Virus record (IMG/VR): IMGVR_UViG_3300027734_000038
Direction: 5' to 3' (one strand)
DNA length: 64,000 bases
Source of the DNA: a virus
The position numbers and the translations under genes are program-made. This document shows positions 22,839 through 55,563 of the stretch, piece after piece; position 1 is the stretch's first letter; every line of letters starts with the position of its first letter. The notes beneath the pieces were generated by a model. It saw only the letters and a list, made by a program, of their open reading frames with translations, was not told where the DNA came from and made no database searches.

Positions 22839-23180
22839 ATGGCAGCAGCATATCAAGAACTATTTCTAGAACAAGGTACAACATTTACCACCAATATCAC
22901 ACTAGATGATATTGATGGACTCCCTTTCAATTTGACTGATGTTATCGCTAAAAGTCAGATTCGTAAGTCATACTATTCGGCCAATGTAACCGCTCAGTTT
23001 ACTACCACTATTAATTCTCCTAATACAGGAGTTATTCTATTGTCTTTATCAGCACCAGTCACAGCCAATATTGCGGCTGGCCGATATGTATATGATGTAG
23101 CAATTAAAGATACCGCTAATACTGTAACTAGAGTATTAGAAGGAGTCGTGAATGTTATTCCTCAAGTCACTAAGTTTTAA
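22839..23180 (+). CDS. Small virion adaptor protein
   Basis: LEQGTTF...QIRKSY...GRYVYDV...TRVLEG.V.V.PQVT. First gene after the intergenic element. Confidence 0.65.
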   Translation: MAAAYQELFLEQGTTFTTNITLDDIDGLPFNLTDVIAKSQIRKSYYSANVTAQFTTTINSPNTGVILLSLSAPVTANIAAGRYVYDVAIKDTANTVTRVLEGVVNVIPQVTKF

Positions 23181-23189
23181 GGAACTTTC

Positions 23190-23411
23190 ATGCCAGGACA
23201 AGTAATCGGAACAGTTAATGTTCAAGTAAACAAACAACAAAACCAGACTGTTCGTCAGTTAAATTATGGTATACGGTCATTACAAGGTTCTACAGACCTT
23301 TCGTTGGTCAACGTTCAAAACGATGATGTGATTGCTTATCAAGCAAATACGAATAGTTTTATTGTTAAATCCGTTCAAGATGCTGTGGACTTAGATGCAG
23401 GATTCTTCTAA
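23190..23411 (+). CDS. Small fibre connector ending in DAGFF
   Basis: 73-aa ORF with upstream AAGGA RBS and a C-terminal DxGxF motif. Confidence 0.6.
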   Translation: MPGQVIGTVNVQVNKQQNQTVRQLNYGIRSLQGSTDLSLVNVQNDDVIAYQANTNSFIVKSVQDAVDLDAGFF

Positions 23412-23608
23412 TGGCTAATACAGTCGTTCAGATTCTTCGTTCATATGCCAATACAGCACCAAAAAGTTTAGAAGATGGTGAGTTAGCGTATTCCTTTGTT
23501 TCCAATACGCTTTTTATTGGAACAGCGAATAGTCAAATCATTCAAATAGGCGGTCCAAATTATATTGCCAACGTCACCATTAATACGGTAGACGGTGGTG
23601 GATTTTAA
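23411..23608 (+). CDS. Minimal Mtd-N-like connector ending in DGGGF
   Basis: QILRS...P.SL..GELAYS motif shared with 23651 and 25990. Confidence 0.65.
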   Translation: MANTVVQILRSYANTAPKSLEDGELAYSFVSNTLFIGTANSQIIQIGGPNYIANVTINTVDGGGF

Positions 23609-23650
23609 TAAATAGAACTGATGGTACCATAATAATAAGAGAGAAAATAG

Positions 23651-25426
23651 ATGGCCAATACTAATATTTTAATTAAACGCTCGACCACAACTGGCGTTCC
23701 CGTCAGTTTACAAGCTGGTGAGTTAGCGTATTCATACCTATCCAATACAATCTTTATTGGAACACCAGGTGGAAATGGTGTTGTTAACGTTGGAGGTCAA
23801 TATTATACTTCTCAAGTTGATGCAGCTACCAGTTCAAATACTGCTAGCACATTAGTCAAGCGTAATGCGAATGGTCAATTCTCTGGTCGGTTAGATGGTA
23901 TTGCTGGTAAAGCTGATGTAATTACCAATGCAAGAAACTTCTCTATTTCTGGTGGTGATATCACTGCCTCAGCACAAAGTTTTGATGGTTCGGCCGCTGT
24001 CACTTTAAGTGCTTCTCTTAATGCAGTACCTTCTCTCGGTGCTGGTACTTACGGTTCTCAAACACAGATTCCAATCATTCAAGTGGCGGCCAATGGTCGT
24101 GTAATGAATGTTACAACTTCAACCATTTCTACAACTCTCTCTACTGCTGCTGATTCTGGAACTGGTTCTGTTAATCTATTAAACGATACATTAAGATTTG
24201 TTGGTGCTGAAGGTATTACAACATCAGACTCTAGCAATACAGTCACATTTAATGTTGATGATACAGTTGTTCGTTCTAATGCCTTTACTGGTGGCACACA
24301 GACAATCAACACCAATTTAACGATTGGTTCAGGAAAAGATTTAACTGTTACGGGTAACTTAATCGTTACAGGTAACGTAGTATCAGAAAACGTTACGCAA
24401 TTTGCTATTCAAGATCCATTACTTGTTCTTGGTATTGGTAACTATTTTTCTGATACAAAAGATATTGGTTTCGCAGCACACTATAATGATGGTTCGAATG
24501 CTCACACCGGTTTGATTCGTGATTCTAATGCTAGTAAAGAATATTATTTCTTTGAAGGTTATATACCCGACCTTGATGCAAACAACAACGTAAATATTAC
24601 CGACCCATCATTTAGAAAATCAAATGTTCATGTTAACTACCTTAAAGGTAATGTAGTTGCAAACACAATATCAACCGATACAATCACCACAACAGGTAAT
24701 GTAACAATTGGTGGTAATTTAGTAGTTGCTCAAGACATTGTAATTGATGACCTACAAGTTGATGTAATTACTGCAAATACATTAACACTCACCAATGCTC
24801 TTACAGTACCAAATGGTGGTACAGGTAAAACATCATTCACTTCTGGTCAAATTATTATTGGTTCTGGTGTAAATGGTCTTACACAGATTGCTAACTCAAC
24901 TGTTGCTGTTGGTCAAACTTTTGGATCCGCATCTTCTGTTGCTGCATTTCAAACTGATGTATATGGTCGTGTAGTTTCTGTAACGAATACTGCAATCAGT
25001 ATCGATACATCACAGATTACTTCTGGTACATTACCTTATACTCGTGGTGGTACAGGTTCCACAACTTACACAACAGGTGGTTTGTTAATTGCTGGTCCTT
25101 CTGGATTTGCATCACTCGCAAATACAACTTATACATTAACTGGTGCTCTTGCTTCCAATAATACAATCACAAGTATTACTGTTGATGCATATGGAAGATT
25201 CACTGCTGCAACCGGTTCTGCAATTTCTGGTTTAACTGTAGGTCAAGGTGGTACAGGACTCTCAACGATTACACAAAACGGTATCACATATGGTAACGGA
25301 ACAGGAAATCTAGGTGTAACATCAGCTGCAGGTGGCGCAGACCAAACTTGGTCAAATCAAATACTGACAGTTACTAATGCTGGTGTGCCTGTATGGACAA
25401 CTGCTTTAGACGGAGGCCAGTTCTAA
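23651..25426 (+). CDS. Fibre protein (Mtd-N-like N-terminus, C-terminal DGGQF)
   Basis: IKRS...GELAYS; VxxxGRV and GGTG fibre repeats; a DIGF.HYN.GSNAHTGL.RD domain shared with 27065. Confidence 0.75.
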   Translation: MANTNILIKRSTTTGVPVSLQAGELAYSYLSNTIFIGTPGGNGVVNVGGQYYTSQVDAATSSNTASTLVKRNANGQFSGRLDGIAGKADVITNARNFSISGGDITASAQSFDGSAAVTLSASLNAVPSLGAGTYGSQTQIPIIQVAANGRVMNVTTSTISTTLSTAADSGTGSVNLLNDTLRFVGAEGITTSDSSNTVTFNVDDTVVRSNAFTGGTQTINTNLTIGSGKDLTVTGNLIVTGNVVSENVTQFAIQDPLLVLGIGNYFSDTKDIGFAAHYNDGSNAHTGLIRDSNASKEYYFFEGYIPDLDANNNVNITDPSFRKSNVHVNYLKGNVVANTISTDTITTTGNVTIGGNLVVAQDIVIDDLQVDVITANTLTLTNALTVPNGGTGKTSFTSGQIIIGSGVNGLTQIANSTVAVGQTFGSASSVAAFQTDVYGRVVSVTNTAISIDTSQITSGTLPYTRGGTGSTTYTTGGLLIAGPSGFASLANTTYTLTGALASNNTITSITVDAYGRFTAATGSAISGLTVGQGGTGLSTITQNGITYGNGTGNLGVTSAAGGADQTWSNQILTVTNAGVPVWTTALDGGQF

Positions 25427-25463: not shown

Positions 25464-25985
25464 ATGGATAACCAAAAGTATTTGAATTATTATGTTGAAA
25501 TAATGACTGGCACAATGACTGATGCCGTGATTAGAAATATTTCATTACAGGCTAATGCAAGAGTTACTGAAGAAGTAATTGATGAACAATCAAAAACAAT
25601 TGAGAAATTAAAAAATGATTTGGAAAATGTTAATTCTGGTAAAGACGGTACAATTAAAGGTCATTTAGATACTATTAATAGTTTAAATAATCAGCTGTCT
25701 GAACTAAACAAAATGAAAGGTGATTACGAAACTGTCAAACATCAAGTTGACCATGTAAATACTTTTAGAAGTGAATTGGTTAAAGAACGAGCAGAGCATT
25801 TAAAAACTCGTAAAGAATATGAAAACACTATTAAAGGATTGAATGAACAAATTGAATACTTGCAATTAACTCCTGCCAAGCGTAAAAAGATTGACGAAGA
25901 AAAAAATAAAGTGGTAGAAGTAATAGAACAATCTTCTGTTTTACCTATCATAGATGACCTAACAAAAGATGGCGGAAGTTTTTAA
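25464..25985 (+). CDS. Coiled-coil hypothetical protein ending in DGGSF
   Basis: Charged heptad-rich sequence. AGGAG RBS. Confidence 0.65.
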   Translation: MDNQKYLNYYVEIMTGTMTDAVIRNISLQANARVTEEVIDEQSKTIEKLKNDLENVNSGKDGTIKGHLDTINSLNNQLSELNKMKGDYETVKHQVDHVNTFRSELVKERAEHLKTRKEYENTIKGLNEQIEYLQLTPAKRKKIDEEKNKVVEVIEQSSVLPIIDDLTKDGGSF

Positions 25986-25989
25986 ATAG

Positions 25990-27024
25990 ATGGCAAATAC
26001 AACTTTACAGTTAAAAAAATCAGGCGCAACAGGTAATGTACCATCATCACTATCATATGGTGAGTTGGCGTTAAACTACGCTGATGGAAAACTGTATTAT
26101 AAGGCCGCTAATGGCACCATCACTTATATTCAAAGTGGTACATCAACAGATTCGTTTGCAACAATCAATGCAAACAGTTCTTTAATTCTTGCTACATCAC
26201 CTACTGATACACTTTCGATACGTCCTGGTAATAATATTACCATATCGACAGATACAGTTGGTAAATCAATTACAATTAATTCTACTGCTACTGGTGGTAG
26301 TGGTGATGGTACCGACCAGTTTGCTCGCAATACAGCTAACGCAGCCTTCAATCAAGCCAATGCGGCGATTGACTTAGCACAGTCTGCTTATAATTATGCA
26401 AATACAATTCCAGGTGGTGGCGGTGGTACATTAACAGTTTCAAATGATACTACATCTAACACAGCAAGATTTATTAACTTCACAAGTAATACTTCTGGTG
26501 CAATCAGCACCATTAATACTTCTAGTAATAATTTAACTTATGTTCCAGAAACAGGAACATTAAAAACTTTAGCATTAAATGTAACAGCCAATACCAATAT
26601 CTCAGCGAATAGTGCAACTGTGGTTGGTACCAGTCAACAAGTCTTGGATAGTTTTTCCACAGAACTGTATCGTGGTGCGTTCTATCAGATTCAGATGGAA
26701 ACACCAGGTGGTTTTCAAGTTTTAAATATTAGTATTGTTAACTCCGAAAGTAGTGCTCAAGTTACTACCTTTGGTGATGCATATAATGCCTCAGTTTTGG
26801 CAACTTTTGATGCAAGTGTTTCGGGTGGTTTAGTTCAACTCAAAATTACTCCAACACAATCATCTACAACAGTATCATATTTAAGACACGCATTAGTCAA
26901 ACTAACGGCAGGTATTCCTACTGGTGACATGGGTTTCGTTGCGGATCCAACCACAGCAACCTTTGATGCCGGATTTGACTTAGATGCAACCACTTCTACT
27001 TACGATTACGGTTTTGTGAGCTGA
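25990..27024 (+). CDS. Fibre protein (Mtd-N-like start, YRxAxY domain, three C-terminal DxGF motifs)
   Basis: LKKS...GELALNYADGKLYY; LDSF..LYRGAFYQIQ; DMGFV, DAGFD, DYGFVS. Confidence 0.7.
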   Translation: MANTTLQLKKSGATGNVPSSLSYGELALNYADGKLYYKAANGTITYIQSGTSTDSFATINANSSLILATSPTDTLSIRPGNNITISTDTVGKSITINSTATGGSGDGTDQFARNTANAAFNQANAAIDLAQSAYNYANTIPGGGGGTLTVSNDTTSNTARFINFTSNTSGAISTINTSSNNLTYVPETGTLKTLALNVTANTNISANSATVVGTSQQVLDSFSTELYRGAFYQIQMETPGGFQVLNISIVNSESSAQVTTFGDAYNASVLATFDASVSGGLVQLKITPTQSSTTVSYLRHALVKLTAGIPTGDMGFVADPTTATFDAGFDLDATTSTYDYGFVS

Positions 27025-27064: not shown

Positions 27065-28612
27065 ATGGCCACACAATTACAACTGAGAAAAGGTAATACC
27101 GCACAGACCGCAGTCTTTACAGGTGCAGTCGCTGAGGTTACTGTTGATACTGACCAAGATACCGTTGTTGTCCATGACGGCACAACTGTTGGCGGTAACT
27201 ATATTGTTACTAAAACACAATTACAAAGTAACGTATCGATACTACAAGGTATCAACACTACACAAAATACCAATATTACAGCTGTCAACGGATATGCCGC
27301 TGGTGCTTTCAATGCAGCCAATGGTGCCAATGGTTTAGCTGCCGGTGCTTTTGCAGCTGCCAATACCAACGCCACAAATATTACAATCATTCAAGGTGTA
27401 AACACCACACAAAATACCAACATTACCGCAGTAAACAACTATGCTGTTTCTGCATACAATCAAGCTAACACCAATGCAACCAACATTACAGCAGTAAATG
27501 GTTTTGCTCAGTCAGCATTTAATACTGCCAATGGTGCGAATGGTTTGGCTGCAGGTGCTTTTAATCAGGCAAACTCGGCATATTCTTATACTACACAAGT
27601 AGAAGCTATTGCACAAAATGGATGGAACAAAGCTAATGCTGCTTTTAATTCGTCCAATGCAGTAAATGGTTTTGCCGTATCGGCCTACAATCAGGCAAAC
27701 GCATCTACTCTTTTAGCACAATCAGCCTACGACACAGCCAATCTAAAGTTCAATACTTCTGGTGGTAATATTAATGGTTCAGTTACTATTACAGCTAATA
27801 ATAATTTAACTGTTACTGGTAACTTATATGTTCTAGGAAATACAACATCATTTTCTACACAAACATTTGATGTAGTTGACCCAATGATTCTGTTGGCAAC
27901 AGGAAACTATACAACTGATACATTAGACATTGGTTTTGCAGGACATTATAATAATGGTTCCAATGCTCATACAGGTTTGTTCCGAGATGCAGCAGGCACT
28001 AAAGAGTGGTACCTATTTGAAGGTTATACTCCTGAAGTTACTGGTAATAACAACATTAATGTTGCTGACAGTTCATTTAGAACATCCAATGTAAATGTTA
28101 ATTATGTAAAAGGTAATCTAATTGCTACAACAGCAATTGTTGGTGACCGTAATATACTAAATTATACACAGTCAGCTTTTGATACTGCCAACACGGCCAA
28201 TACAAGAGCATATGCTTCTGTTGCCAAGTCTGGCGATACAATGACTGGTGCATTGACTGGTGTAACAACACTTGGTACAACTACAATTAGTTTATCTCAT
28301 GTAGATGCCACAAGTAATACATTATTAACATCATCTACATCACAAGTTTCTGTTGATGCATGGCCAACAGCCACATATCGTTCTGCCAAATACTTTGTTC
28401 AAATTTCTTCTGGTACTGATTTTCATATTATTGAATTAAATCTACTTCACAATGGTACTACAGTATTCTTGGCACAATATGGTGAAGTATTAACTAGTTC
28501 TTCTTTAGGAACATTTGATGCTGATATTTCTGGTTCAACAGTTCGTCTATTGTTTACTGGTGTAAATGCAGTATCAACAGTCAAACTTTTAAGAACTGTG
28601 GTGGATGCATAA
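27065..28612 (+). CDS. Fibre protein (Mtd-N-like start, C-terminal YRSAKY domain)
   Basis: MATQLQLRKG...EVTVDTD..TVVVHDG; AxxxAN coiled-coil repeats; YRSAKYFVQ...LHNG. Confidence 0.75.
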   Translation: MATQLQLRKGNTAQTAVFTGAVAEVTVDTDQDTVVVHDGTTVGGNYIVTKTQLQSNVSILQGINTTQNTNITAVNGYAAGAFNAANGANGLAAGAFAAANTNATNITIIQGVNTTQNTNITAVNNYAVSAYNQANTNATNITAVNGFAQSAFNTANGANGLAAGAFNQANSAYSYTTQVEAIAQNGWNKANAAFNSSNAVNGFAVSAYNQANASTLLAQSAYDTANLKFNTSGGNINGSVTITANNNLTVTGNLYVLGNTTSFSTQTFDVVDPMILLATGNYTTDTLDIGFAGHYNNGSNAHTGLFRDAAGTKEWYLFEGYTPEVTGNNNINVADSSFRTSNVNVNYVKGNLIATTAIVGDRNILNYTQSAFDTANTANTRAYASVAKSGDTMTGALTGVTTLGTTTISLSHVDATSNTLLTSSTSQVSVDAWPTATYRSAKYFVQISSGTDFHIIELNLLHNGTTVFLAQYGEVLTSSSLGTFDADISGSTVRLLFTGVNAVSTVKLLRTVVDA

Positions 28613-28647: not shown

Positions 28648-29223
28648 ATGAGAGGTGAATGGTGTTATTTTGGGAAGTATTTTACTCCCGAGCAGTGCAG
28701 TAGAATATTAGAAAATGGATTAAAAATACCGGCACAAGACGCCAAGTTAGGCGTTGCCGGTATGAATGATTATAGTAATGATTCGTTCCGCAAATCCAAA
28801 ATCCGTTTTATTCAATCTGATAACCCCGATTTTAAGTGGCTCTTTGATGAGTTATTAAAAATGGGTATGCAGGCCAATAAAGATTGGTTCAATTTTCATA
28901 TTACCAATCTATCATATATTCAATTAGCCGAATACGATGAATCATATCAAGGTGAATACAAGAAACACCATGATGTGTTTTGGGTAAACAATGATAGTTA
29001 CCATCGTAAACTTACCTGTGTAATTCAACTTACAGACCCATCAGAGTATGAGGGTGGTGACCTAGAGTTGTTTGAACTATCTGAATATCCAAACAAAGAC
29101 GAACTACGCCAGCAAGGCACAGCAATCTTCTTCCCGTCTTTTATTCCACATCAAGCACATCCAGTAACAAAAGGTAAACGATATAGTATTGCAGTATGGT
29201 TTGAAGGAGATAAGTGGAAATGA
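28648..29223 (+). CDS. 2OG-Fe(II) oxygenase (PKHD/prolyl-hydroxylase-like)
   Basis: HxD (KHHD), RKLT.VIQL, YEGGDL, FPSF.PH...VTKG.RYS...W. Confidence 0.9.
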   Translation: MRGEWCYFGKYFTPEQCSRILENGLKIPAQDAKLGVAGMNDYSNDSFRKSKIRFIQSDNPDFKWLFDELLKMGMQANKDWFNFHITNLSYIQLAEYDESYQGEYKKHHDVFWVNNDSYHRKLTCVIQLTDPSEYEGGDLELFELSEYPNKDELRQQGTAIFFPSFIPHQAHPVTKGKRYSIAVWFEGDKWK

Positions 29224-30356
29224 GATTTCATATTTTAGGATTACCCCATACTGTATCATCAAAAGAATATAATGCGTGTGCATATACTCAGAAAGTGGTT
29301 AAATTTGGTAAGATGATGACTGAAAGAGGTCATGAAGTGATTCATTATGGCCATGAAGAATCGGACTTACCATGCACAGAACACGTTACTGTATTGTCTA
29401 CTGAAGATTGGAAGAAAACATATGGTGACCATGACTGGCGTAAACACTTCTTTAAGTTTGACACCAACGACCATGCATATCAAACTTTCTATCGTAATGC
29501 TATTGAAGAAGTAGGTAAACGCAAACAAAAGAATGACTTTATTCTTCCGTTTTGGGGTTCAGGTACTCGACCAGTCTGTGATGCACATCCAGATTTAATC
29601 TGTGTAGAACCAGGAATTGGTTATGCAGGTGGCCATTGGGCACGATTTAAAATCTTTGAATCTTATGCCATCTATCACGCATACTATGGACTAGATTCAG
29701 TAGGTACTTGTAAGCAAGACTGGTACGATGCAGTTATTCCAAACTACTTTGACCCCGAAGATTTTGTATATACACCAGAGGAGAAAGAAGATTACTTTCT
29801 ATTTCTAGGTCGTGTATATGAGGGTAAAGGAGTTAATATTGCGGTACAGGCAACTGAAGCCATTGGTGCCAAGTTAATTATTGCCGGACAGAACTCACTC
29901 AAAGATATGGGTTACAAAGAAGTACCATCTCATGTTACTGAAATTGGTTATGCGGATGTGGAAACTAGAAAGAAGTTGATGTCCAAAGCCAAAGGTGCAT
30001 TTGTGGCATCGTTATACACCGAACCTTTTGGAGGCGTTCAGGTCGAGTGCCTTTTCTCAGGTACGCCTACGATAACAACTGATTGGGGTTCGTTCACGGA
30101 GAACAATATCCATGGTGTTACGGGGTATAGGTGCAAGACCTTTGAACAGTTTACTTGGGCAGCTAAGAATATTGACAACATTAAACCACAAGCCTGTAGG
30201 GACTTCGCACTAAATAACTTTAGTCTGGATGTGGTAGCACAGAAATATGAAGAATATTTTCAGTCAGTATTAAATGTTTATAATGGTGATGGATGGTATG
30301 AAAAGAATGATAACCGGACCGAATTGGACTGGTTAACCAAATATTATCCTGCCTAA
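29220..30356 (+). CDS. Glycosyltransferase, GT-B fold, family 4-like
   Basis: FLFLGR...KG; EPFGGVQVE (E-x7-E)...GTP.ITTD. ATGA overlap with the oxygenase stop. Confidence 0.88.
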   Translation: MRFHILGLPHTVSSKEYNACAYTQKVVKFGKMMTERGHEVIHYGHEESDLPCTEHVTVLSTEDWKKTYGDHDWRKHFFKFDTNDHAYQTFYRNAIEEVGKRKQKNDFILPFWGSGTRPVCDAHPDLICVEPGIGYAGGHWARFKIFESYAIYHAYYGLDSVGTCKQDWYDAVIPNYFDPEDFVYTPEEKEDYFLFLGRVYEGKGVNIAVQATEAIGAKLIIAGQNSLKDMGYKEVPSHVTEIGYADVETRKKLMSKAKGAFVASLYTEPFGGVQVECLFSGTPTITTDWGSFTENNIHGVTGYRCKTFEQFTWAAKNIDNIKPQACRDFALNNFSLDVVAQKYEEYFQSVLNVYNGDGWYEKNDNRTELDWLTKYYPA

Positions 30357-30393: not shown

Positions 30394-31533
30394 TTGGCAA
30401 CCAGCTCAAACTTTGTCGTTAAAAATGGCCTATCCGTAGGCGCAAATGCCGTTATTGCAGCTAACGGTGCGTGGATTGGTGCCAACACAAACCTCATCGG
30501 TGCAACTGGTCCTACAGGTGCCACAGGTCCACAAGGTGCAACTGGTTTTGGTGCTACTGGTGCTACAGGTATTATTGCACCTTGGATTTATATCACATCT
30601 ACAACCTCTGCGGTTGCAAATACTCAATATATCGCCAATACTGTTGGTGGTTCTTTCACTCTCACACTTCCATCTACACCAGTTTTAGGTACAACCATTG
30701 TTGTTACTGATGGTGGAAATTGGGGTAATAATAATCTCACAATCGGTCGTAACGGAAAAACAATTGAAGGTGATGCTTCTGATTTAATCTGTGATGTAGG
30801 TCAGACAACTATTCAGTTAATCTATGATAACATTACATGGCAGACAACTGCAACTATTGGTTCAAAAGGTGCTACTGGTATTACTGGTGCAACTGGTGTG
30901 CCGGCTGCATGGGCATATATCACAGCTAATACAAATGCTGGTGCCAACTCTCAATACATTGCTAATACAACAGGCGGTGCGTTTACATTAACACTACCTG
31001 CAACACCAGTAATTGGCACAACAGTAACAATTACCGATGGTGGTGATTGGGGTGTAAACAATTTAACTATTGCAAGAAATGGTTCTACAATTGAAGGTGT
31101 TGCTGATAATGTGGCGTTGAATCTTCCGTCAACATTAGTATACTTCATATATACTGGTACAACTTGGCAAGTAGTTACGACTGCTGGTTCACAAGGTGCC
31201 ACAGGCGTTACTGGTCCAACAGGACCTTCAGGCACAAATGGTGCCACAGGTTTAACCGGACCAACCGGTCCTACAGGTCCTACCGGTCCAACAGGACCTA
31301 CAGGTGCTACAGGTGCAGGCGCAACAGGTGCCACAGGTCCTGCCGGTCCATCAACAGTATCTTCAGGTGTAATTACTCTTTCAAGTTCTACACCATTTGT
31401 TTTAAATGCCAACACAATTACGGCAGATTACACAATTCCTGGTGGTTACAATGCCTTCAATGCTGGTCCAATGACTATTGCTACTGGTGTGAATGTAACG
31501 ATTGCTACTGATGCTAATTGGGTAATCATTTAA
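30394..31533 (+). CDS. Collagen-like hub protein: NFxxKNGL N-terminus, two gp10-like domains, C-terminal GPxT...W domain
   Basis: TTG start, inferred from identity with the N-termini of 35419 and 39297. G-X-T repeats. Two YIANT.GG.FTLTLP..P..G...D...W..NNLTI.RNG.TIEG domains. Confidence 0.8.
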
Positions 31534-31542
31534 GGATAAAAT

Positions 31543-31923: not shown

Positions 31924-31932
31924 GGATAAACA

Positions 31933-32328: not shown

Positions 32329-32345
32329 TTTATAAAGGAAAAAAA

Positions 32346-32765: not shown

Positions 32766-32769
32766 TAAA

Positions 32770-33273: not shown

Positions 33274-33283
33274 ATAATAACAA

Positions 33284-46409: not shown

Positions 46410-46573
46410 TGAGTTTATATGATAAAATTGTTGCACTTTATCCAGAATTAGTTGCTACTGATTTTTCTCCGTCTATGGGTTCAATCAGGTTGCAAGATGA
46501 AGGTAATGGTGTTTATATTGCCAAATGGGAACACCCAACATTACCTAAACCTACGGATGAACAGTTAGCATGA
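46409..46573 (+). CDS. XkdW-like small partner protein
   Basis: MSLYDKI..LYPEL...DF...I.LQD.G.G.YIAKW.HPTL..PT.EQL. Confidence 0.65.
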   Translation: MSLYDKIVALYPELVATDFSPSMGSIRLQDEGNGVYIAKWEHPTLPKPTDEQLA

Positions 46574-47091: not shown

Positions 47092-47109
47092 TATTTAAAA
47101 GGAAACAAA

Positions 47110-47292
47110 ATGAAAACTTTATACGAAAAAATTCTATCAATCTATCCAGAACTAACTGATGCTGATTTTATGCCAGGTCGTGGCACAATTATGCTTCAGA
47201 ATGATTCTGACGGCCGTGGTGATTACATCAGAGAATGGAATCATGCAACATTGGCAGAACCAACAGAAGAACAATTAGCGAGCGCTGAATAA
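47110..47292 (+). CDS. XkdW-like small partner protein
   Basis: LYEKI..YPEL...DF...LQNDSDGRGDYI..W. Paralogue of 46409. Confidence 0.65.
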   Translation: MKTLYEKILSIYPELTDADFMPGRGTIMLQNDSDGRGDYIREWNHATLAEPTEEQLASAE

Positions 47293-47738
47293 TGTCTATT
47301 GTATTGAACGGTACTAATAATCAAATTACTGGAGTACCGGGATTGGTATTGCAAGTGGTTAGTTCTACTTTTACTTCTTCGTTTTCTTCTTCATCGGGAA
47401 GTTTTGTTTCTATAGGATTAACCGCATCTATTACACCAACAAGTTCTTCAAGTAAAATTTTGATATTAATAGATTCGTTTGTTCGTAGTGATGCTGCAAA
47501 TTTTGTTGATGCAACAATTTATAAAAATTCCACTAATTTAGGTGGAGCATATGGTTTAAAAAATGCTTATGTAAACGCAGCATTTGTTATGCCAATTCCG
47601 TTTACTTATTATGATTCACCAGCAACAACTTCTTCAACTTCTTATACATTGTATATGCGGACTGAAAATGCCGCCACTTTTTACTTAGAAGCTGCTGGTA
47701 GAGTTTCAACAATCACACTTATGGAAATAGCAGCTTAA
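47292..47738 (+). CDS. Fibre-tip protein, family B
   Basis: VLQVV...ITPTSSSSKIL...DSPATTS..SY...STITLMEIAA. Confidence 0.7.
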   Translation: MSIVLNGTNNQITGVPGLVLQVVSSTFTSSFSSSSGSFVSIGLTASITPTSSSSKILILIDSFVRSDAANFVDATIYKNSTNLGGAYGLKNAYVNAAFVMPIPFTYYDSPATTSSTSYTLYMRTENAATFYLEAAGRVSTITLMEIAA

Positions 47739-47758
47739 TTTAACAAAAAGGAAACAAA

Positions 47759-48055
47759 ATGAGAATCTCTAAAATTGATGCAATCTTATCTCTATCACCT
47801 GGTGCTGAAGTAGTAGTGCGTGGTGAAGAAGTAGAATGGATTAATCCTTCTACTGCACCTGTAACTGAAGCACAAATTGCTGCTGAGTTGGTAAGACTCC
47901 AAGCAGCCTACGAAGCAAAACAATATCAGCGTGACCGTGCTGGTGAATATCCAGCAATTGGTGACCAATTGGATGCTTTGTTCCATGCAGGAGTATTCCC
48001 TGAAGCCATGGCAGAAATCATTCAGGCCGTCAAAGATAAATACCCTAAATCATAA
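47759..48055 (+). CDS. Putative fibre assembly partner (YQR.R..YP.I.DQLD family)
   Basis: YQRDRAGEYPAIGDQLDAL.H...AVKDKYPK. Confidence 0.6.
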   Translation: MRISKIDAILSLSPGAEVVVRGEEVEWINPSTAPVTEAQIAAELVRLQAAYEAKQYQRDRAGEYPAIGDQLDALFHAGVFPEAMAEIIQAVKDKYPKS

Positions 48056-48068: not shown

Positions 48069-48692
48069 ATGCAATATCAAAGTTTCGTTGCTGGGTCAGG
48101 AATATCAGGTGCTACCGGTCCAACCGGTGCTACTGGTGTCATTGCACCGTGGACAAGAATCTCCGCAAATACAAGTGCTTCGGCTAATACACAGTATCTA
48201 GCCAACACAGCAACTGGTGCCTTCACTCTAACATTACCAGGTACACCATCAGTTGGTGTTATGGTAGTGATTGCTGATGATTATAACTTTGGTGCAAACA
48301 ATCTTTTTGTTGCAAGAAATGGTTCTACTATTCAAGGCATTGCTGATGACTTAGGTATTAACATCAGCAACTCATTGACAACATTGATTTATGATGGTAC
48401 TACTTGGAGAGTTTCTACAAATGCTGGACCACAAGGTGCAACTGGTGCCACAGGTCCTACAGGAACTTCTGGTACCAACGGTGCCACAGGTGCTACCGGT
48501 TTAGGTGCTACTGGTGCTACTGGTGCCAGTTTGTTTGCTGATTCCAATAATGTTATTTTTTTAAATAATACGTTGATTACTTCTAACACAACATTGCAAC
48601 CAGGTCGTGGTGCATTTTCTGTTGGACCAATCTCTGTTAATACAGGTGTTCAACTTATTGTTTCATCTAACACAAGGTATGTGGTACTATGA
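48069..48692 (+). CDS. Hub: ISGATG N-terminus, gp10-like domain, C-terminal GPIS...Y domain
   Basis: [10 protein letters not shown]; YLANT..AFTLTLP..P..G...NNL..RNGSTI.G; SVGPISVNTGVQLIVSSNTRYVVL. Confidence 0.75.
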   Translation: MQYQSFVAGSGISGATGPTGATGVIAPWTRISANTSASANTQYLANTATGAFTLTLPGTPSVGVMVVIADDYNFGANNLFVARNGSTIQGIADDLGINISNSLTTLIYDGTTWRVSTNAGPQGATGATGPTGTSGTNGATGATGLGATGATGASLFADSNNVIFLNNTLITSNTTLQPGRGAFSVGPISVNTGVQLIVSSNTRYVVL

Positions 48693-49222
48693 GTAATATT
48701 ATTCTAGGCTCAGGACCTTCAGGTTCAGGTTCATTAACCTTACAAGCACCGAATACAAATAGTAATCAGACAGTTAATTTTCCTGATGCTTCTGGCATAC
48801 CCATGGTTAGTGGTAATATGCCAGCGTTTTATGCTTATCAAAATTCAGCACAATCAATTCCAAATGTAACTTGGACTAAAGTATTGTTTCAAGTAGAAGA
48901 ATTTGATACTAATAGTAATTTTGCTTCAAGCCGTTTTACTCCTACTGTTGCTGGTTATTACCAACTTACTTCTCAATTGCAATATACAACTATTGCTGGT
49001 GGAAGAAATATGTTTGTAATATATAAAAATGGTGCTGAGTATAGACACCTACAGGATATGCAAACAAGTTACACTATTGGATTAATGGGAACTTCATTAG
49101 TTTATGCAAATGGTTCATCAGACTATTTTGAAATTTATATTTATACGTCAACTGGTGCATACACATTAGATAATAATTCAGCAATAACATATTTTAGCGG
49201 TTGTTTAGTGAGGGCTGCATAA
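48689..49222 (+). CDS. Fibre-tip protein, family C
   Basis: MVSGNMPAF.AY...EEFDTNSNFASSRFTPTVAGYYQ...LVRAA. Confidence 0.7.
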   Translation: MSNIILGSGPSGSGSLTLQAPNTNSNQTVNFPDASGIPMVSGNMPAFYAYQNSAQSIPNVTWTKVLFQVEEFDTNSNFASSRFTPTVAGYYQLTSQLQYTTIAGGRNMFVIYKNGAEYRHLQDMQTSYTIGLMGTSLVYANGSSDYFEIYIYTSTGAYTLDNNSAITYFSGCLVRAA

Positions 49223-50322
49223 TGCCATACGGTTCAATCTCAGTAGACCAAATTAATAACACCACAGGATATTCTCTTGGTGCTGGTAACGCTTCTATTA
49301 TGAAGAATCGCATTATCAATGGTGCGATGGTTATTGACCAAAGAAATGCTGGTGCTAGTGTTACGCCAGCAAATAACACTTACACTTTAGACCGATGGAA
49401 TACTTATCAAAGCACTTCTTCTGCTTATAGTGTTCAACAAAATGCTGGTTCTGTAACACCACCATTAGGGTTTACAAACTATCTTGGCGTAACTTCTTTA
49501 GCAGCAACTTCATTATCTGCTGGAAGTTATTTTATGCTTACTCAAATTATTGAAGGATTTAATGTTGCTGATTTAGGTTGGGGAAGTGCTAACGCCAAAA
49601 CTATAACATTATCTTTTTGGGTGCGTAGTTCTTTAACTGGAACATTTGGCGGATCTTTACAAAATGGTGGAACAAGAAGCTACCCATTTACTTACACAAT
49701 TTCTGCCGCAAATACTTGGGAACAAAAATCAATTACTGTTGCAGGTGATACAAGTGGAACTTGGGCAACAGATAATACTGCTGGCATTAAATTACGAATT
49801 GGTCTTGGTGTTGGCACAACCGCAAGCACAACTGCTGGCGCATGGGCAACCGGCGATTACTATTCAGCAACAGGTGCCACTTCAATAGTAGGAACAAACG
49901 GTGCCACATTCTATATTACTGGAGTTCAGTTGGAAGTTGGAAGTGTGGCCACAGGTTATGAATATGAAAATATTGCTCAAACTTATTCAAAATGCCAACG
50001 CTATTACACAGTTTTGTTATCAGGCAACGATAAGAGTTTATGCCTTGCAACTTGGTATAACACTTCAGAATGGGATGCAGTAGTATTTTTTCCAACGATG
50101 CGGTCAGCACCTACAGCATCATCAACAACAGTATCTTCTGGATATTATTTTGATAAATTAGGTGGCAATATTACTTTTGACAATATTAGTGGTGTTTTTG
50201 GTGCTGGCTTAAATGTTGCACAACCATACAAAGTGGCATTAAGTGGCGGTGTTGCTGGTTATTGCGGAAGCATTAGAACTTTAAATGCTTCTTGTTTTAT
50301 TGCTTTAAGTGCGGAGTTATAA
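49222..50322 (+). CDS. Fibre-tip protein, family D
   Basis: Start MPYGS (TAATG overlap); KNRIINGAM.IDQRN...GVQLEVG...CQRYY...SAEL. Confidence 0.75.
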   Translation: MPYGSISVDQINNTTGYSLGAGNASIMKNRIINGAMVIDQRNAGASVTPANNTYTLDRWNTYQSTSSAYSVQQNAGSVTPPLGFTNYLGVTSLAATSLSAGSYFMLTQIIEGFNVADLGWGSANAKTITLSFWVRSSLTGTFGGSLQNGGTRSYPFTYTISAANTWEQKSITVAGDTSGTWATDNTAGIKLRIGLGVGTTASTTAGAWATGDYYSATGATSIVGTNGATFYITGVQLEVGSVATGYEYENIAQTYSKCQRYYTVLLSGNDKSLCLATWYNTSEWDAVVFFPTMRSAPTASSTTVSSGYYFDKLGGNITFDNISGVFGAGLNVAQPYKVALSGGVAGYCGSIRTLNASCFIALSAEL

Positions 50323-50323
50323 A

Positions 50324-50491
50324 ATGACCTATCAATTATCAAATTTTCGTGGCAAATTAGCTTGCATTGTAAAAACTGATGGTAACATGAAACATTTTAT
50401 TCCTTTATCGAAAGATAACACCGATTACCAAGAATATCTAAAATGGGTTGCAGAAGGTAACACACCAGAACCAGCAGAAGGCACAGAATGA
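50324..50491 (+). CDS. Small partner protein, DNTDYQ family
   Basis: Start MTYQL; DNTDYQEYLKWVAEGNTPEPA. Confidence 0.75.
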   Translation: MTYQLSNFRGKLACIVKTDGNMKHFIPLSKDNTDYQEYLKWVAEGNTPEPAEGTE

Positions 50492-50961
50492 CAACGACTA
50501 TTGACGGTAATTCAGGAGTTATATTTCCAAATAACACTACACAAGCTAGTGCTGGTCAAGTGTTGCAGGTGGTTAATGGCACTTATTCAGGCCCCTATTT
50601 TTCAACAACAAGTACCACTTTTGTATCTACTGGATTAACGGTAACTATTACACCTAAGTTTGTTACAAGTAAAATTTTATTACTTTTACAAGTTGAAGTT
50701 TATAATGATACAGCAAATAAAGGTGGTGATTTAACCATTTATAAAAATGGTGCAAATTTAGCCTCAGGTTTATTAGGAAGAATGTATCCTATTTCTGGTC
50801 AATTAGCTATTAATATTCCTATTAATTATTACGATTCGCCATCAACAACATCAGCAACAACTTATACACTTTATATTAAAACAACAAATGCTGGATATGC
50901 TTTCAATGCTTTTCAAGATGCTTTTCCATCAACAATTACTGCATTGGAAATAGCAGCATGA
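50488..50961 (+). CDS. Fibre-tip protein, family B
   Basis: GQVLQVV...ITPKF.TSKIL...DSPSTTSATTY...EIAA. Confidence 0.7.
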   Translation: MTTTIDGNSGVIFPNNTTQASAGQVLQVVNGTYSGPYFSTTSTTFVSTGLTVTITPKFVTSKILLLLQVEVYNDTANKGGDLTIYKNGANLASGLLGRMYPISGQLAINIPINYYDSPSTTSATTYTLYIKTTNAGYAFNAFQDAFPSTITALEIAA

Positions 50962-51329
50962 CAATATACTTAGGGCAAATTGCTGGTTCTGGAATATCTG
51001 GTGCAACCGGTCCTACAGGTCCAACTGGACCATCTGGTGCTACTGGTGTATTTCCAACAAGCAGTTCAGCTAACTTAGCAATCACTAATGCCAATACATC
51101 AACATCAAATACTACTGGTGCTCTGACTGTTGCAGGTGGTGTAGGTGTTACAGGTAATGTATGGGTAGATACTGTTGTTGTTACGAATGGTTTGATACTT
51201 AATTCTAACACAATAAATAGAAGTTATACAGTACCAGACAATTACAATGCTGGTTCATTTGGTCCAATCACAGTAGCAAACTCTGCGATTGTTACAGTAC
51301 CAAGTGGTTCAATTTGGACCGTGGTTTAA
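50958..51329 (+). CDS. Hub: ISGATG N-terminus plus GPIT...W domain
   Basis: [10 protein letters not shown]; ends GPITVANSAIVTVPSGSIWTVV. Confidence 0.75.
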   Translation: MTIYLGQIAGSGISGATGPTGPTGPSGATGVFPTSSSANLAITNANTSTSNTTGALTVAGGVGVTGNVWVDTVVVTNGLILNSNTINRSYTVPDNYNAGSFGPITVANSAIVTVPSGSIWTVV

Positions 51330-51338
51330 GGATAAAGA

Positions 51339-51848
51339 ATGACATTCAAAGTTGATGGATCAAACGGATTAACATTTCCAAATAACACTACACAAGCTAG
51401 TGCTGGCCAAGTGTTGCAAGTTGTTCAAGCAGAATATGCCACACAAGTATCTTTATCTTCTATAACATATACAGATACCGGATTATCCGCAACCATTACT
51501 CCTAAATTTGCAACAAGTAAAATTTTAGTTAATATAAGTCAAAATCTATACATATACAGAGAGTTTGCATTTCAATATGGATATCTTCAACTATTGAGAA
51601 ATGGTTCTGTTGCAAAAGATTTTAGATTAGTTATGAATCAAACTGCTGGAAATCCTGCTGGCGGAAGTTATCCTTACCACGACATGAGTGCGGTTGTTGG
51701 ATTAAGTTATTTGGATTCACCAGCAAGCACTTCTGCTTTAACATATAAAACACAACAAAAATGTGGAACAACAAGCAATGGCGGAACAATAATTGCTCAA
51801 ATTGATAGTGCTCCATCTTTCATTACACTTATGGAGATTGCAGCCTAA
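51339..51848 (+). CDS. Fibre-tip protein, family B
   Basis: GQVLQVV...ITPKFATSKILV...DSPASTSALTYK...MEIAA. Confidence 0.7.
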   Translation: MTFKVDGSNGLTFPNNTTQASAGQVLQVVQAEYATQVSLSSITYTDTGLSATITPKFATSKILVNISQNLYIYREFAFQYGYLQLLRNGSVAKDFRLVMNQTAGNPAGGSYPYHDMSAVVGLSYLDSPASTSALTYKTQQKCGTTSNGGTIIAQIDSAPSFITLMEIAA

Positions 51849-52399
51849 TGCCAATTAAATTACAATCTTCTTCTGGTGGTTCAGTTACTTTAGATGTGCC
51901 GGTCACAGCAAGTAACTTTAATGTAACTGTACCTAATGCTTCTGGTACTGCTATGGTTAGCGGTAATATGCCAGCGTTTAGTGCTTATAAAACTTCCCAT
52001 CAAAGTTATTCAAATAATACTTGGACAAAAATAACTTACGACACAGAAGAATATGATACCAATAGTAATTTTGCTTCAAGCACTTTTACTCCCACAGTTG
52101 CAGGGTATTATCTGTTTACTGCAAGAAACCAATTTATTGCAGATGGAGTTGCAATGGCTGAAATAAATTCAGCGTTTTTTAAAAATGGCACTATTGCTAA
52201 AACAGGAACTTATAAGTATCAACCAGCGGCACTTACTGCACAATTTGGAAGTAACATTTCTGCTGTAATTTATTGCAACGGTACAACAGATTATGTTGAA
52301 TGTTACGGAAGAACTGACGGAAGCACTTTGTATGTTTATGGTGCAGCTGGTGCGGCGCCTTACACATACTTTCAAGGCATTTTAATGAGGGCTGCATAA
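51848..52399 (+). CDS. Fibre-tip protein, family C
   Basis: MVSGNMPAFSAY...DTNSNFAS..FTPTVAGYY...NGTTDYVE...MRAA. Confidence 0.7.
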   Translation: MPIKLQSSSGGSVTLDVPVTASNFNVTVPNASGTAMVSGNMPAFSAYKTSHQSYSNNTWTKITYDTEEYDTNSNFASSTFTPTVAGYYLFTARNQFIADGVAMAEINSAFFKNGTIAKTGTYKYQPAALTAQFGSNISAVIYCNGTTDYVECYGRTDGSTLYVYGAAGAAPYTYFQGILMRAA

Positions 52400-53487
52400 T
52401 GTCGGTACAATACGGCGGAGATAAAATAACATTTGCTGATGGTTCTTCTACATCTAGTGGATATACTTTTAGAAATAGAATCATTAACGGTGCCATGGTT
52501 ATAAGCCAATATAACGGCACAAGTAGTGTATCAATAGATAACACTAAAAACCAATACTACATTGACAGATGGGCTATTCAAAACAATACTGGTTCTGCGG
52601 TGTTTTCTTATCAACAAGTTACAACTGCACCAACCGGATTTAACAATAGTTTAAAAATAACTGTTACTACTGCTGATGGTTCTTTAACTTCTACTGCTAA
52701 AGCACAAATTTATCAACCAATTGAAGGTTACAACATTGCCGATTTAGGATGGGGAACTGCCAACGCCAAATCCGTTACCTTGTCATTTTGGGTTCAATCT
52801 AGTGTAACAGGAACTTTTGGTGGTGCATTGGGCAACAATGCTAATGATAGAAGTTATCCATTTACATATACAATCTCATCAGCAAATACTTGGGAACAAA
52901 AATCAATTACCATTGCTGGTGATACAACAGGCACTTGGCTAACTACTAATGGTTTAGGCATCAATGTTGATTTTAGTTTAGGTGCTGGAACTTCTCGTAG
53001 TGGAACTGCTGGTACTTGGGGTGGTGCTTGGTACACTTCTGCTACTGGTGCAACTAATTTATTAGCTACAAACGGAGCCACATTCTACATTACTGGTATT
53101 CAGTTTGAAGTAGGAAGTTCATCAACAACTTTTGAAGCTCGTGATTACGGAAATGAATTAAGAATGTGTCAGCGGTATTATCAGTTATGTAATGGATTTC
53201 TTGGAACTCCGGGCGCTTCTACTACAATCATGTATACATCTATTCAATACCAAGTTGCAATGAGAGCAAATCCATCTTTAGGACAAACAGGAGTTATTAA
53301 TATGACTGCACCCGGTGTTGATACATGGCAACAATCTAGCACAGGTATAGCAGCTGGAGGCCAAAATACAACAGGAACATGGATTCAATTAAACAATTTT
53401 TCTGGTTTAACTCAGCATAGACCATATGTCCAGTCCGTTAATTATGCTGGCAATGGATATGTTATTACTTTATCTGCGGAGTTATGA
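52399..53487 (+). CDS. Fibre-tip protein, family D
   Basis: RNRIINGAM...IEG.N.ADLGWG.ANAK..TLSFWV...CQRYY...SAEL. Confidence 0.75.
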   Translation: MSVQYGGDKITFADGSSTSSGYTFRNRIINGAMVISQYNGTSSVSIDNTKNQYYIDRWAIQNNTGSAVFSYQQVTTAPTGFNNSLKITVTTADGSLTSTAKAQIYQPIEGYNIADLGWGTANAKSVTLSFWVQSSVTGTFGGALGNNANDRSYPFTYTISSANTWEQKSITIAGDTTGTWLTTNGLGINVDFSLGAGTSRSGTAGTWGGAWYTSATGATNLLATNGATFYITGIQFEVGSSSTTFEARDYGNELRMCQRYYQLCNGFLGTPGASTTIMYTSIQYQVAMRANPSLGQTGVINMTAPGVDTWQQSSTGIAAGGQNTTGTWIQLNNFSGLTQHRPYVQSVNYAGNGYVITLSAEL

Positions 53488-53648
53488 TGATTTATAAATT
53501 AATGAATGTAATGGGACATGAATCGGTAAGTTTATTTAAAGATACAGAATTTGTAATGAATATTCCATTTGATCCAGATAACACAGATTACCAAAAATAT
53601 CTAAAATGGGTTGCAGAAGGCAACGAACCATTACCAGCGGACGAATAA
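53484..53648 (+). CDS. Small partner protein, DNTDYQ family (54 aa, not in the ORF track)
   Basis: MMIYKLMNVMGHESVSLFKDTEFVMNIPFDPDNTDYQKYLKWVAEGNEPLPADE. Confidence 0.8.
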   Translation: MMIYKLMNVMGHESVSLFKDTEFVMNIPFDPDNTDYQKYLKWVAEGNEPLPADE

Positions 53649-53651
53649 TAA

Positions 53652-55151
53652 ATGCCAATCTATCAATCAGTTGTTGCGGGTTCAGGAATATCAGGTGCTA
53701 CAGGACCTAATGGTGCTACTGGCGTTACAGGACCTACAGGACCAAATGGACCAACAGGCCCAACCGGACCAGCTGGTGCTACCGGTGTAACTGGACCAAC
53801 AGGACCAGCTGGTGCTACTGGACCAAATTCAATTGCAGCTGTATCAGACCAATCAAATAGTTCTACAGGATATCTTGCATTACCGGCAGGTACATCAGGA
53901 CAAAGACCGGGTAGTTCTGCAAATGGATACACAAGATTAAACACCACCGTTGGTGCAGTAGAATCTTATTTCAATGGTAAATGGCAAGCAATTACAACTT
54001 TTGCAACGGTACCTAATGCACCAACTGCTGTATCTGCGGTTGCTGGTGATGCTCAAGCTGTAGTATCGTTTACTGCACCAGCAAATAATGGTGGATCAAC
54101 AATCACATCTTATACGGCAGTATCTTCTCCAGGTGGATTTACTGCATCAGTTTCACAATCAGGTTCAGGTAGTGTTACTGTAACAGGTTTATCAAATGGT
54201 ACTGCATACACATTTACAGTATTTGCCACAAATGCTATTGGTAGTGGTGCATCAAGTTCTGCAAGTGGTTCAGTAACACCAGTTGCACCAGTAGTTGTTT
54301 CTTCACTTATTATTGCTGGTGGAGGAGGCGGCGGAGCGTATTACCAAGCTGGTGGTGGCGGTGCTGGTGGATATATAAATTCATTTGCTTCAGAAACATC
54401 TGGTGGAAACTCAGCTACTGCGGCAAAATCAAGCGTAGCTGTTGGAACTGTTCTTACTGTAACAGTTGGCGGTGGCGGTAATGGTGGATCAGGATTAGGT
54501 TCTGTTGGTTCGCAAGGAAGTTCATCTTCTATTATTGGAACTGGAATGTCGGTGACTGCTACTGGTGGCGGATACGGTTCATCAGGCCAAAATGCAAGCC
54601 CTCCTGCTGGTGGTAATGGTGGTTCTGGTGGTGGTGGTGCTGACTATGTGCCAGGCACAGCATCTGCAGGTGGTTCTGGCATTGCTGGACAAGGATCAAA
54701 CGGGTCTGCTCCCCCTCATGCAGGTCCTTCTTATGGTTCTGGAGCTGGTGGTGGTGCAGGACAAATCGGTCAAACTGGAAGTGGTACTGTTGGCGGTGTA
54801 GGCGGTGCAGGTTTATCTTCGTCTATTACCGGAACTGCTACAACTAGAGGCGGTGGAGGTGGCGGGTCTTGTTACTCAGGTTCTGGTGGTCAAGGCGGTG
54901 CTGGTGGTTCTGGTGGTGGCGGTAACGGGTCTACTGGCGCTGGTGGCGCTGGTACGCCTAATACTGGTGGCGGTGGTGGCGGTGGTGAGCGAGGTGGGGC
55001 TGGAACAGGTGGAAATGGTGGTAAAGGAGTTGTTATTATTAGCGTGCCCACTTCGCAATATTCAGGAACATCTAGCGGAGCCTCCACAATTTCTACGGCT
55101 GGGTCAAATACTTACTTAGTATTTAATGACTCTGGAAGTTATACAGTTTAA
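53652..55151 (+). CDS. Fibre: ISGATG N-terminus, collagen tract, FN3 domain, glycine-rich tip
   Basis: P.APT.V.A.AG..A.VSFTAP..GGS.IT.Y...GL.NGT.YTF.V.A.N..G (FN3), then AGGGGGG...GGGGAGG...NTGGGGGG...GG.GVVII. Confidence 0.8.
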
Positions 55152-55164
55152 TTAAGGAAAAAAT

Positions 55165-55563
55165 ATGGCTTATTTTGCAAAATTAAACTCTCAAAATATA
55201 GTAGAACAAGTCGTTTCTGTAGGCAATGAAATGCTTTTAGATAACGGCATCGAGTCTGAAGCTAAAGGCATAGAATTTTTACGTGCCCTATATAACGAAC
55301 CAAATGCCGTTTGGGTGCAAACATCTTATAACAGCAGAGGCGGTATGCATACTAACGGTGGTATTTCATTCAGAAAAAACTATGCGGCTATTGGTGGCCT
55401 ATACGATATAGTTCGTGACGCCTTTATTCCTAGAAAACGATATGGTTCTTGGATATTGAATGAAAATACTTGTTTATGGGAATCTCCGACACCCATGCCA
55501 AATGATGGTAAACAATATATTTGGGATGAAATAACAAAATCTTGGACAGAAATAACAGAATAA
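55165..55563 (+). CDS. Putative partner of the glycine-rich tip (MAYFA...QTSYN family)
   Basis: WVQTSYN...FRKNYA..G..YD...DAFI...SW.LNE.TC.WE.P.P.P. Confidence 0.6.
   Translation: MAYFAKLNSQNIVEQVVSVGNEMLLDNGIESEAKGIEFLRALYNEPNAVWVQTSYNSRGGMHTNGGISFRKNYAAIGGLYDIVRDAFIPRKRYGSWILNENTCLWESPTPMPNDGKQYIWDEITKSWTEITE

Follow-up and report, generated by a model that had tools for sequence, protein, structure and literature searches.

A T4-like phage fibre gene cluster that probably encodes a modular, multi-level branched adhesion appendage

Introduction

In phage T4, the N-terminus of gp34 is held by gp9 (PMC1079782), and in DT57C, an LtfC ring takes the N-terminal strands of a fibre, with LtfA augmenting the LtfC sheets (PMC10713586). 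RBP2 of KP34 carries an N-terminal MALxxLV peptide (PMC6872550), and in KP32 a branching domain and a peptide are both needed for assembly (PMC13352976). Here, we describe a fibre gene cluster at positions 22,839 to 55,563 of a 64,000-nucleotide stretch of virus DNA (IMG/VR record IMGVR_UViG_3300027734_000038; hereafter the window, meaning the whole stretch). With a probability of roughly 0.7, we read this cluster as encoding a modular, multi-level branched virion adhesion appendage, the separate trimeric pieces of which are clipped together by about nine types of joint, gene order largely reflecting the wiring.

The window belongs to a T4-like myophage, with baseplate genes, including those for gp6 and gp8, at 5.5–21 kb and neck, sheath-stabiliser, and terminase genes from position 55615. 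The cluster runs from an LtfC-like gene at 22839 up to neck gene 13 and consists of 51 co-directional genes, all on the + strand (as are all cluster features given below), i.e. 22 tip genes, linkers, chaperones, and genes for an oxygenase, a glycosyltransferase, and a homing endonuclease. The original prediction for this locus, which proposed a hierarchically branched fibre tree, had counted about 45 genes where the span holds 51, 14 of them for small likely tip chaperones; its figure of about 22 tip-domain genes agrees with our count.

Results

Genes are named below by their first position. The comparative set comprised the window and 28 rebuilt whole clusters (8–32 kb), giving 29 clusters from related genomes for which the patterns of the C-terminal peptides were tuned by eye, and the data consist of motifs, counts, gene order, homologies, and two predicted folds. 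All recurring motifs listed in the original prediction are present, namely three GELA domains (23411, 23651, and 25990), three NFxxKNGL and five ISGATG starts, one MANTF start (40802), two MSxIGN and two MAxxKI starts, one MTQA start, 15 short strand starts, two YRxAxY domains, five domains termed gp10-like, and five GPIT..W modules. The expectation that module and peptide numbers match was mostly borne out, one departure being DxGxF ends versus GELA domains (4:3); a further pair, DxGxV–Mtd_N, had been missed. When tallied across the 29 clusters, as had been proposed, cognate counts co-vary and non-cognate counts mostly do not. The value of rho was 0.99 for YRxAxY versus NFxxKNG and 0.92 for DxGxL versus Mtd_N, and the counts of four adaptor pairs were equal in 29/29 clusters (non-zero in 11, 9, 9, and 3), whereas for non-cognate pairs rho was mostly <0.5 with a maximum of 0.62. 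Genes 23411 (65 amino acids), 45667 (68 amino acids), and 50958 each consist of a plug and a socket, as had been noted.

The root gene (22839..23180) specifies a 113-amino-acid LtfC-like collar protein that matched PHROG 3304, 'L-shaped tail fiber protein assembly' (E = 1e-22); LtfC is its lead label in Atlas, given to 11% of members, and an LtfC-like gene stands at the head of the compared clusters. This putative root narrows the attachment site, without settling it. The first link (23190..23411) has a strand-rich N-terminus, which by analogy with LtfA may add strands to the collar, and a C-terminal DxGxF plug. It is followed by a self-compatible bead (23411..23608; gp37-N-like socket and DGGGF plug), a 591-amino-acid stalk (23651..25426; gp37-N-like socket and DGGQF plug), a charged, probably coiled-coil protein ending in DGGSF (25464..25985), and a protein combining a gp37-N-like socket, a gp9-C-terminal-like domain (YRxAxY), and a C-terminal DxGxV plug (25990..27024).

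A profile of the GELA domain family, built from the window and its relatives, matched residues 5–51 of T4 gp37 (E = 4.9e-13), and the GELA domain is identified by this homology as the gp37 N-terminal domain; a sequence search found no solved relative. All three GELA domains of the window sit behind a DxGxF end, and since T4 gp36 terminates in DFGYY, the C-terminal peptide would be the plug in this joint. The earlier equation of plugs with N-terminal peptides therefore fails for DxGxF, and likewise for DxGxV and AFSIALG, for all of which the folded N-domain of the next gene would be the socket. The surplus DxGxF end lies on the coiled-coil gene 25464 and is explained by its position, because in all 23 clusters having such a gene it occupies the same place, between the stalk and the third socket, with the same ending. 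The product, which varies in length (161–251 amino acids; ending DGG(S/T)F), could be a spacer, a ruler, a chain terminator, or a second anchor. T4 wac (fibritin) was considered as its counterpart and rejected: no match to wac was obtained, and 25464 lies 30 kb ahead of gene 13, not directly before it. The additional pair is formed by the DxGxV end of 25990 and the Mtd_N socket of 27065 (27065..28612; Pfam Mtd_N, E = 4e-10), which also carries the second gp9-C-terminal-like domain. Outside the cluster, a second Mtd_N-like fibre gene (E = 6e-5) with a 235-amino-acid neighbour is located after gene 15 (58409-60009) and has no obvious DxGxL partner.

The predicted model of the YRxAxY domain of 27065 (predicted local distance difference test, pLDDT, 95) superposed on residues 181–299 of the 303-amino-acid chain in 9F4A, which is gp9, with Z 11.9 and a root-mean-square deviation (rmsd) of 1.8 Å over 99 aligned residues. 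The profile match to T4 gp9 (175–282) is weak, and no solved relative of the domain was found by sequence search. The NFxxKNGL starts belong to genes 30394 (TTG start), 35419, and 39297, and the XD1 domains of these hubs matched T4 gp34 95–189 (E = 2e-9). The mismatch of two YRxAxY domains to three NFxxKNGL peptides, already pointed out in the original prediction, was confirmed and recurs in relatives (2:3 in G001, 2:2, 2:2, and 1:3 in G031); a search of the window and of five partial relatives revealed no third gp9-like domain. In T4, one gp9 trimer meets one gp34 trimer. Given the recurring offset, full occupancy of one tree is not assured, and competition at the gp9-like level may produce heterogeneous virions.

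The five domains termed gp10-like matched TSP4 90–167, which lies inside XD1 (80–178), and T4 gp10 60–137. They thus correspond to XD1 rather than to the proven docking type for which they had been taken, the XD2/XD3 type being that of the FNG and TATAGQ modules. Because XD1 domains and amphipathic-start children are equal in number (5:5 and 3:3) and C-terminal XD1 domains are directly followed by similar amphipathic starts, the data point to XD1 as a lateral socket in this cluster. In the diverged genome G001, the third hub has no XD1 and the 48069/50958 subtree is likewise gone; 48069 was therefore assigned to 39297 and 53652 to 35419. Gene 48069 is a hub with an ISGATG-class plug, XD1, and a GPIT socket, and is followed by the triad 48689, 49222, and 50488 (48069..50961). 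Mini-hub 50958 (ISGATG-class plug and GPIT socket) precedes the triad 51339, 51848, and 52399 (50958..53648). Tip 53652 (ISGATG-class plug, collagen, FN3, and Gly-rich domain by Pfam; 53652..55563, with the likely chaperone 55165) is the probable child of the XD1 in 35419.

The FNG modules (two copies) and the TATAGQ module (one copy) constitute one domain family with three copies in the window. Its profile matched TSP4 206–249 (XD2; E = 9e-4), 9K4A (E = 3e-11), and P-SCSP1u gp28, and by these homologies the family is assigned to the docking-type XD2/XD3 branching domains. The N-peptide classes MAxSxI, MALTxV, and MTxA track the number of XD2-like modules: an MTxA gene comes next after 31 of 34 genes with two modules versus 0 of 42 with one. 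In the window (41141..45662), the adaptor children are 41141 (one XD2-like module, S74), with child 42445, and 43549, which has two XD2-like modules and a C1q-like head and whose children are 44550 and 45667. The last of these is a mini-hub with a MALTKI plug, resembling the MALxxLV of KP34, and a GPIT socket, and is followed by the triad 45870 (class B), 46570 (class C), and 47292 (class A) and by chaperones (45667..48055).

The MANTF gene (40802..41131) encodes a 109-amino-acid adaptor, the predicted model of which is a single jelly roll (pLDDT 95). Its fold search returned generic jelly rolls only (best Z 9.8, rmsd 2.9 Å, 95 aligned), with no solved relative by sequence and no clear one by fold; it has many viral relatives, some annotated as virion proteins. 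The family (108–120 amino acids) falls into four subfamilies, each with its own upstream C-peptide and downstream N-peptide class, and was not found described in literature searches of incomplete coverage. A GIY-YIG/NUMOD3 homing endonuclease gene (Pfam; 40110..40802) is inserted in the plug–adaptor junction; it is not part of the tree and is absent from the near-identical locus L001. Another endonuclease, in MEP301 (L279:6023-6604), begins with a copy of the N-peptide of the next tip. In small phages (L317, L319, L321, L325, L335, and L337), a GPIT domain is followed by one 113-amino-acid gene distantly related to the adaptor family, not by a triad. In two podovirus loci (L050:15085-16300 and L074:10560-12470), a C-end of the SQ(T/x)FK type is followed by a gene starting with MP(I/L)(L/I)xT.

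The GPIT..W domain is 45 residues long and was C-terminal in 249/249 matches. Each of the five GPIT genes of the window is followed by exactly three strand-start tips (5/5), which none of 1,000,000 gene-order shuffles reproduced. Within these triads, the members differ in N-terminal class and have unrelated heads of 126–366 amino acids. Classes A, B, and C were assigned by N-peptide profiles, an earlier regular-expression classifier having been too crude and replaced. With training on other phages, the profiles picked up 30 of the 33 triad genes of four T4-like clusters that have a socket; in the 25 clusters lacking one, they matched only 4 of 290 fibre genes. Among 60 fully classified triads, 55 contain exactly one class A member (null mean 27, maximum 42), a figure that is partly in-sample and derived from related genomes, and 51 contain three different classes (null mean 21). 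The joint also nests, as a triad member itself ends in a GPIT domain in G001 and RB11-B. No solved relative was found by sequence (one match, E 0.02), and searches of the literature, with incomplete coverage, did not find a three-way joint described. A complex prediction for three GPIT domains with one A, one B, and one C peptide gave a score of 0.02 without controls and counts neither for nor against such a joint.

GPIT domains occur in cultured phages of several kinds, well-studied marine phages among them. HMO-2011 has a fibre, an adaptor, two sockets, and two triads, and the same grammar is seen in HMO-2011, MEP301, ICBM1, and RB11-B. In P-SSP7, gp17 ends in a GPIT domain and is followed by genes 37–39 with A-, B-, and C-like starts. 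Genes 37 and 38 carry resistance-breaking mutations and had no structural assignment (PMC5520035); together with gene 39 they were published as a paralogue cassette. The distal fibre of P-SSP7 is unresolved by cryo-electron microscopy.

The three NFxxKNGL hubs would head three branches. The first (30394..34987) consists of hub 30394 (NFxxKNGL, two XD1 domains, collagen, and a GPIT socket) and its putative children, i.e. triad 31543, 31933, and 32770, XD1 children 33284 and 34349, and chaperone 32346. The second (35419..39285) comprises hub 35419 (one XD1 and a GPIT socket), triad 36336, 37274 (S74), and 38194, and chaperones. The hub of the third branch (39297..40106) has NFxxKNGL, one XD1, and a C-terminal AFSIALG plug. 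The 22 tips (126–499 amino acids) bear C1q-like, S74, FN3/Gly-rich, or unassigned heads; the head families are C1q-like (five), 'GQVLQVV' (four), lectin-like (three), CBM-like (three), S74-capped (three), and singletons, and no depolymerase catalytic family was found among the tips scanned. As their position and composition suggest, the 14 small charged genes found after tips probably encode assembly chaperones. Ahead of the first branch, 28648..30356 specifies a 2OG-Fe(II) oxygenase and a GT1-type glycosyltransferase (Pfam). One or both enzymes are present in 7 of 8 clusters with at least 165 Gly-X-Y triplets but in none of the 21 that have 56 or fewer, representing approximately three to four independent lineages, and because of this co-occurrence with collagen repeats they probably hydroxylate or glycosylate the collagen-like stalks.

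The layout of the cluster is not an assembly artefact, because contigs of freshwater run X4, which is not flagged as the source, span junctions and the diverged genome G001 has the same layout as the window. The X4 contigs cover 30/30 bins of 35.0–54.9 kb, and those of 1.0–2.8 kb bridge several gene junctions with 0–1 differences. The same gene block is carried on a 169-kb contig, and the window DNA is present in freshwater metagenomes. Contigs from an RNA library fall in 29/30 bins; this is no demonstration of transcription and was not used as evidence. The T4 late promoter TATAAATA was not found on the coding strand of the window, and promoters were therefore of no use for delimiting sub-trees. 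Directly after the baseplate genes lies a separate S74-capped fibre of 487 amino acids (21251-22714), possibly the primary tail fibre, and a 2087-amino-acid DUF4815 protein (14765-21028) follows gp8 at the position of T4 genes 9–12; no free-standing gp9 was found in the window. One record of the set, G021 (loci L112 and L253), carries gene 13 twice, once on each strand, and its assembly may be chimeric.

Discussion

The core of the original prediction, a deep branched fibre with several docking pairs, is supported by the counts in 29 clusters and by four joints homologous to those of T4, T5, and CBA120, although details of it had to be changed. In the proposed path, the collar 22839 would hold 23190, followed by 23411, 23651, (25464), 25990, and 27065, linked by gp36–gp37-type and Mtd_N joints; the gp9-like domains would then take the gp34-like hubs 30394, 35419, and 39297. 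These hubs could branch through XD1, which would receive children with amphipathic N-peptides, and through a C-peptide and the jelly-roll adaptor. XD2-like domains would accept children of the MAxSxI, MALTxV, and MTxA classes, and three different tips at once would sit on a C-terminal GPIT..W domain. The numbers of tips on the three branches would be 5, 4, and 13, with at most 11 joints between root and tip, and 23411, 23651, and 48069, being self-compatible, could repeat as gp81 of A-1(L) does. Gene order would thus mostly follow a depth-first walk, as had been suggested, except that 53652 is far from its likely parent 35419. All physical contacts, the stoichiometry, the attachment site, and the ligands are proposals drawn from motifs, counts, gene order, homologies, and the two folds. 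With heads swapped freely behind the same plugs, such an appendage would make a multivalent, broad first contact with host surfaces.

For the triad joint, we prefer a socket3:A3:B3:C3 model, in which each tip is a homotrimer and nine N-peptides cap one socket trimer. The short class-A peptide would lie on the axis, and the two longer peptides would be splayed by symmetry-breaking linkers, as in gp10. S74 chaperone domains work as homotrimers, and we take the tips to be homotrimeric because heads of unrelated folds and S74 chaperones occur among them. The broader proposal is tentative and, in our judgement, a little short of an even chance: GPIT..W would be an obligate, nestable three-way joint of this kind, and together with four mutually specific adaptors and re-used T4 joints, it would form a wiring code readable from gene order, giving aquatic phages trees of >20 tips in about 10 levels and accounting for the unresolved distal fibre of P-SSP7.

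Several observations weigh against a branched tree or its individual joints. The phage is uncultured and known from DNA alone, adjacent ends can be co-inherited, the genomes are related, the C-peptide patterns were fitted by eye, and the one-class-A figure has the in-sample component given above. XD1 in TSP4, gp9, and gp10 docks no trimers on the axis and is a glycan-binding fold elsewhere (PMC8825819), and in G018 and G020 no child of XD1 is apparent. The gp9 fold match is nearly tied by a tailspike C-terminal domain (Z 11.1), and the NFxxKNGL peptide has no profile match to gp34, sharing only F-x4-GL. The ratio of gp9-like domains to hubs departs from 1:1 in the window, G001, and G031. For the triad rule, the contrary cases are the single 113-amino-acid gene after the socket in L317-type loci, the lack of any gene after it in L404 and L438, a fourth tip in P-SSP7, and HMO-2011 triads without class A.

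Some of these features suit a different use of the same joints, in which tips or branches compete for shared sockets and each virion or fibre displays a random subset, as a combinatorial bet-hedge instead of a fixed 22-tip tree. The ratios of 2:3, 2:3, and 1:3, the five similar ISGATG-class plugs, the self-compatible genes 23411, 23651, and 48069, and the fourth P-SSP7 tip would all fit; exact 1:3 sets with one member per class and 1:1 adaptor counts across the 29 clusters are not expected of free alternatives, and we consider this account unlikely, if worth taking seriously. Three different N-peptides per trimeric socket could also mean that a triad is one heterotrimeric fibre built, like C1q, from single A, B, and C chains, the GPIT joint being a switch from homo- to heterotrimer and not a three-way branch. 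Heads within a triad are often paralogous in P-SSP7 and HMO-2011, but those of the window are unrelated and some bear S74 (37274; a MEP301 tip looks similar), which makes the switch improbable.

The conserved ends might instead be recombination anchors or trimerisation signals kept by linkage, with separate fibres at different virion sites and no tree. Paired ends are usually adjacent on the DNA, many short ends of contigs from other phages fit these modules, and T-even fibre loci recombine at conserved motifs, according to work cited in PMC1079782. However, the pairing persists at the protein level in T4-like, T7-like, and other phages from both sea and lake, non-adjacent partners (XD1 children and MALTxV) are paired too, the pair split by the inserted endonuclease gene 40110 is retained, and homology links four joints to proven physical ones; linkage as the whole explanation is thus very improbable. 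Another reading concerns the trunk (23411, 23651, and 25464), which might be a neck or head fibre that self-polymerises into a bead chain in the manner of A-1(L) gp82–gp81–gp80; the tree it carries would then act in retention or environmental sensing and not in primary receptor binding. Gene 23411 has a socket and a plug of one class, the cluster abuts neck gene 13, the separate S74 fibre 21251 adjoins the baseplate genes, and A-1(L) has approximately 14 head-to-tail gp81 trimers and a tip that bound no host (PMC10966104). Against this, the 65-amino-acid protein gave no match to A-1(L) gp81 or gp82 in an insensitive search that included no direct comparison, and the homologous P-SSP7 tips sit behind a tail fibre gene and alter host range; we judge the bead chain rather improbable. 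The branched appendage of separate homotrimers remains our preferred reading.

In abundant marine and freshwater phages, annotation of the variable fibre islands mostly yields runs of hypothetical tail-fibre genes. Should the grammar hold, quaternary wiring could be read from sequence, and host-range evolution would be seen as head swapping behind fixed plugs. P-SSP7 genes 37–39, host-range genes without a structural place, would gain a directly testable role in a cultured model phage, and work on protein assembly could draw on the joints as naturally occurring trimer connectors with mutual specificity.

Among known systems, the T4 long tail fibre (gp9–gp34–gp35–gp36–gp37) has in common with the locus the gp37 N-domain with a gp36-type C-peptide, the gp9 C-fold followed by gp34-like XD1 hubs, and S74 or small tip chaperones. 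In T4, however, each joint is used once in a linear fibre, whereas in the window the joints recur, have left the baseplate, and are combined with branching ones. The LtfC–LtfA–LtfB system of T5/DT57C resembles the locus in its LtfC-type collar, after which a fibre protein with a strand-rich N-terminus is attached; DT57C, a siphophage, has a single branch, and the window phage is contractile and T4-like. The T5-like LtfC collar is a dodecameric ring on the tail tip, and the collar of the window is predicted from sequence. CBA120 TSP1–4, G7C gp66/gp63.1, KP32, and KP34 RBP1/RBP2 share XD1/XD2-type domains and a short N-peptide after an XD2-like domain, but have two to four depolymerase tailspikes and one joint family; in the window, the heads are small, non-enzymatic, and 22 in number, and the joints are of about nine types. 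The statement that known branched complexes bear only a few tailspikes needs correction, as phiKp24 (with the phiK64-1/RaK2 group) has already been modelled with 14 fibres arranged in layers as a tree through gp10-like docking sites (PMC9700779); its fibres are beta-helix depolymerases in four inferred layers, and the available text of that source describes neither the adaptor family nor a three-way joint. P-SSP7 gp17 with genes 37–39 has the same C-terminal domain and the same three plug classes in one joint only. A-1(L) gp82–gp81–gp80 also consists of separate trimers placed head to tail with a self-compatible middle unit, but its fibre is unbranched and gave no sequence match in the search described above. 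The locus would thus work like the known branched complexes without being a member of them, as its tips are not depolymerases and its joints are of about nine types. By homology, its re-used parts appear to be the LtfC-like collar, the gp36–gp37 joint, the gp9–gp34 joint (by fold), and the XD2-type domain with a MALxxLV-type peptide; the four-subfamily jelly-roll adaptor is apparently undescribed, as is the GPIT..W triad joint, which may be new.

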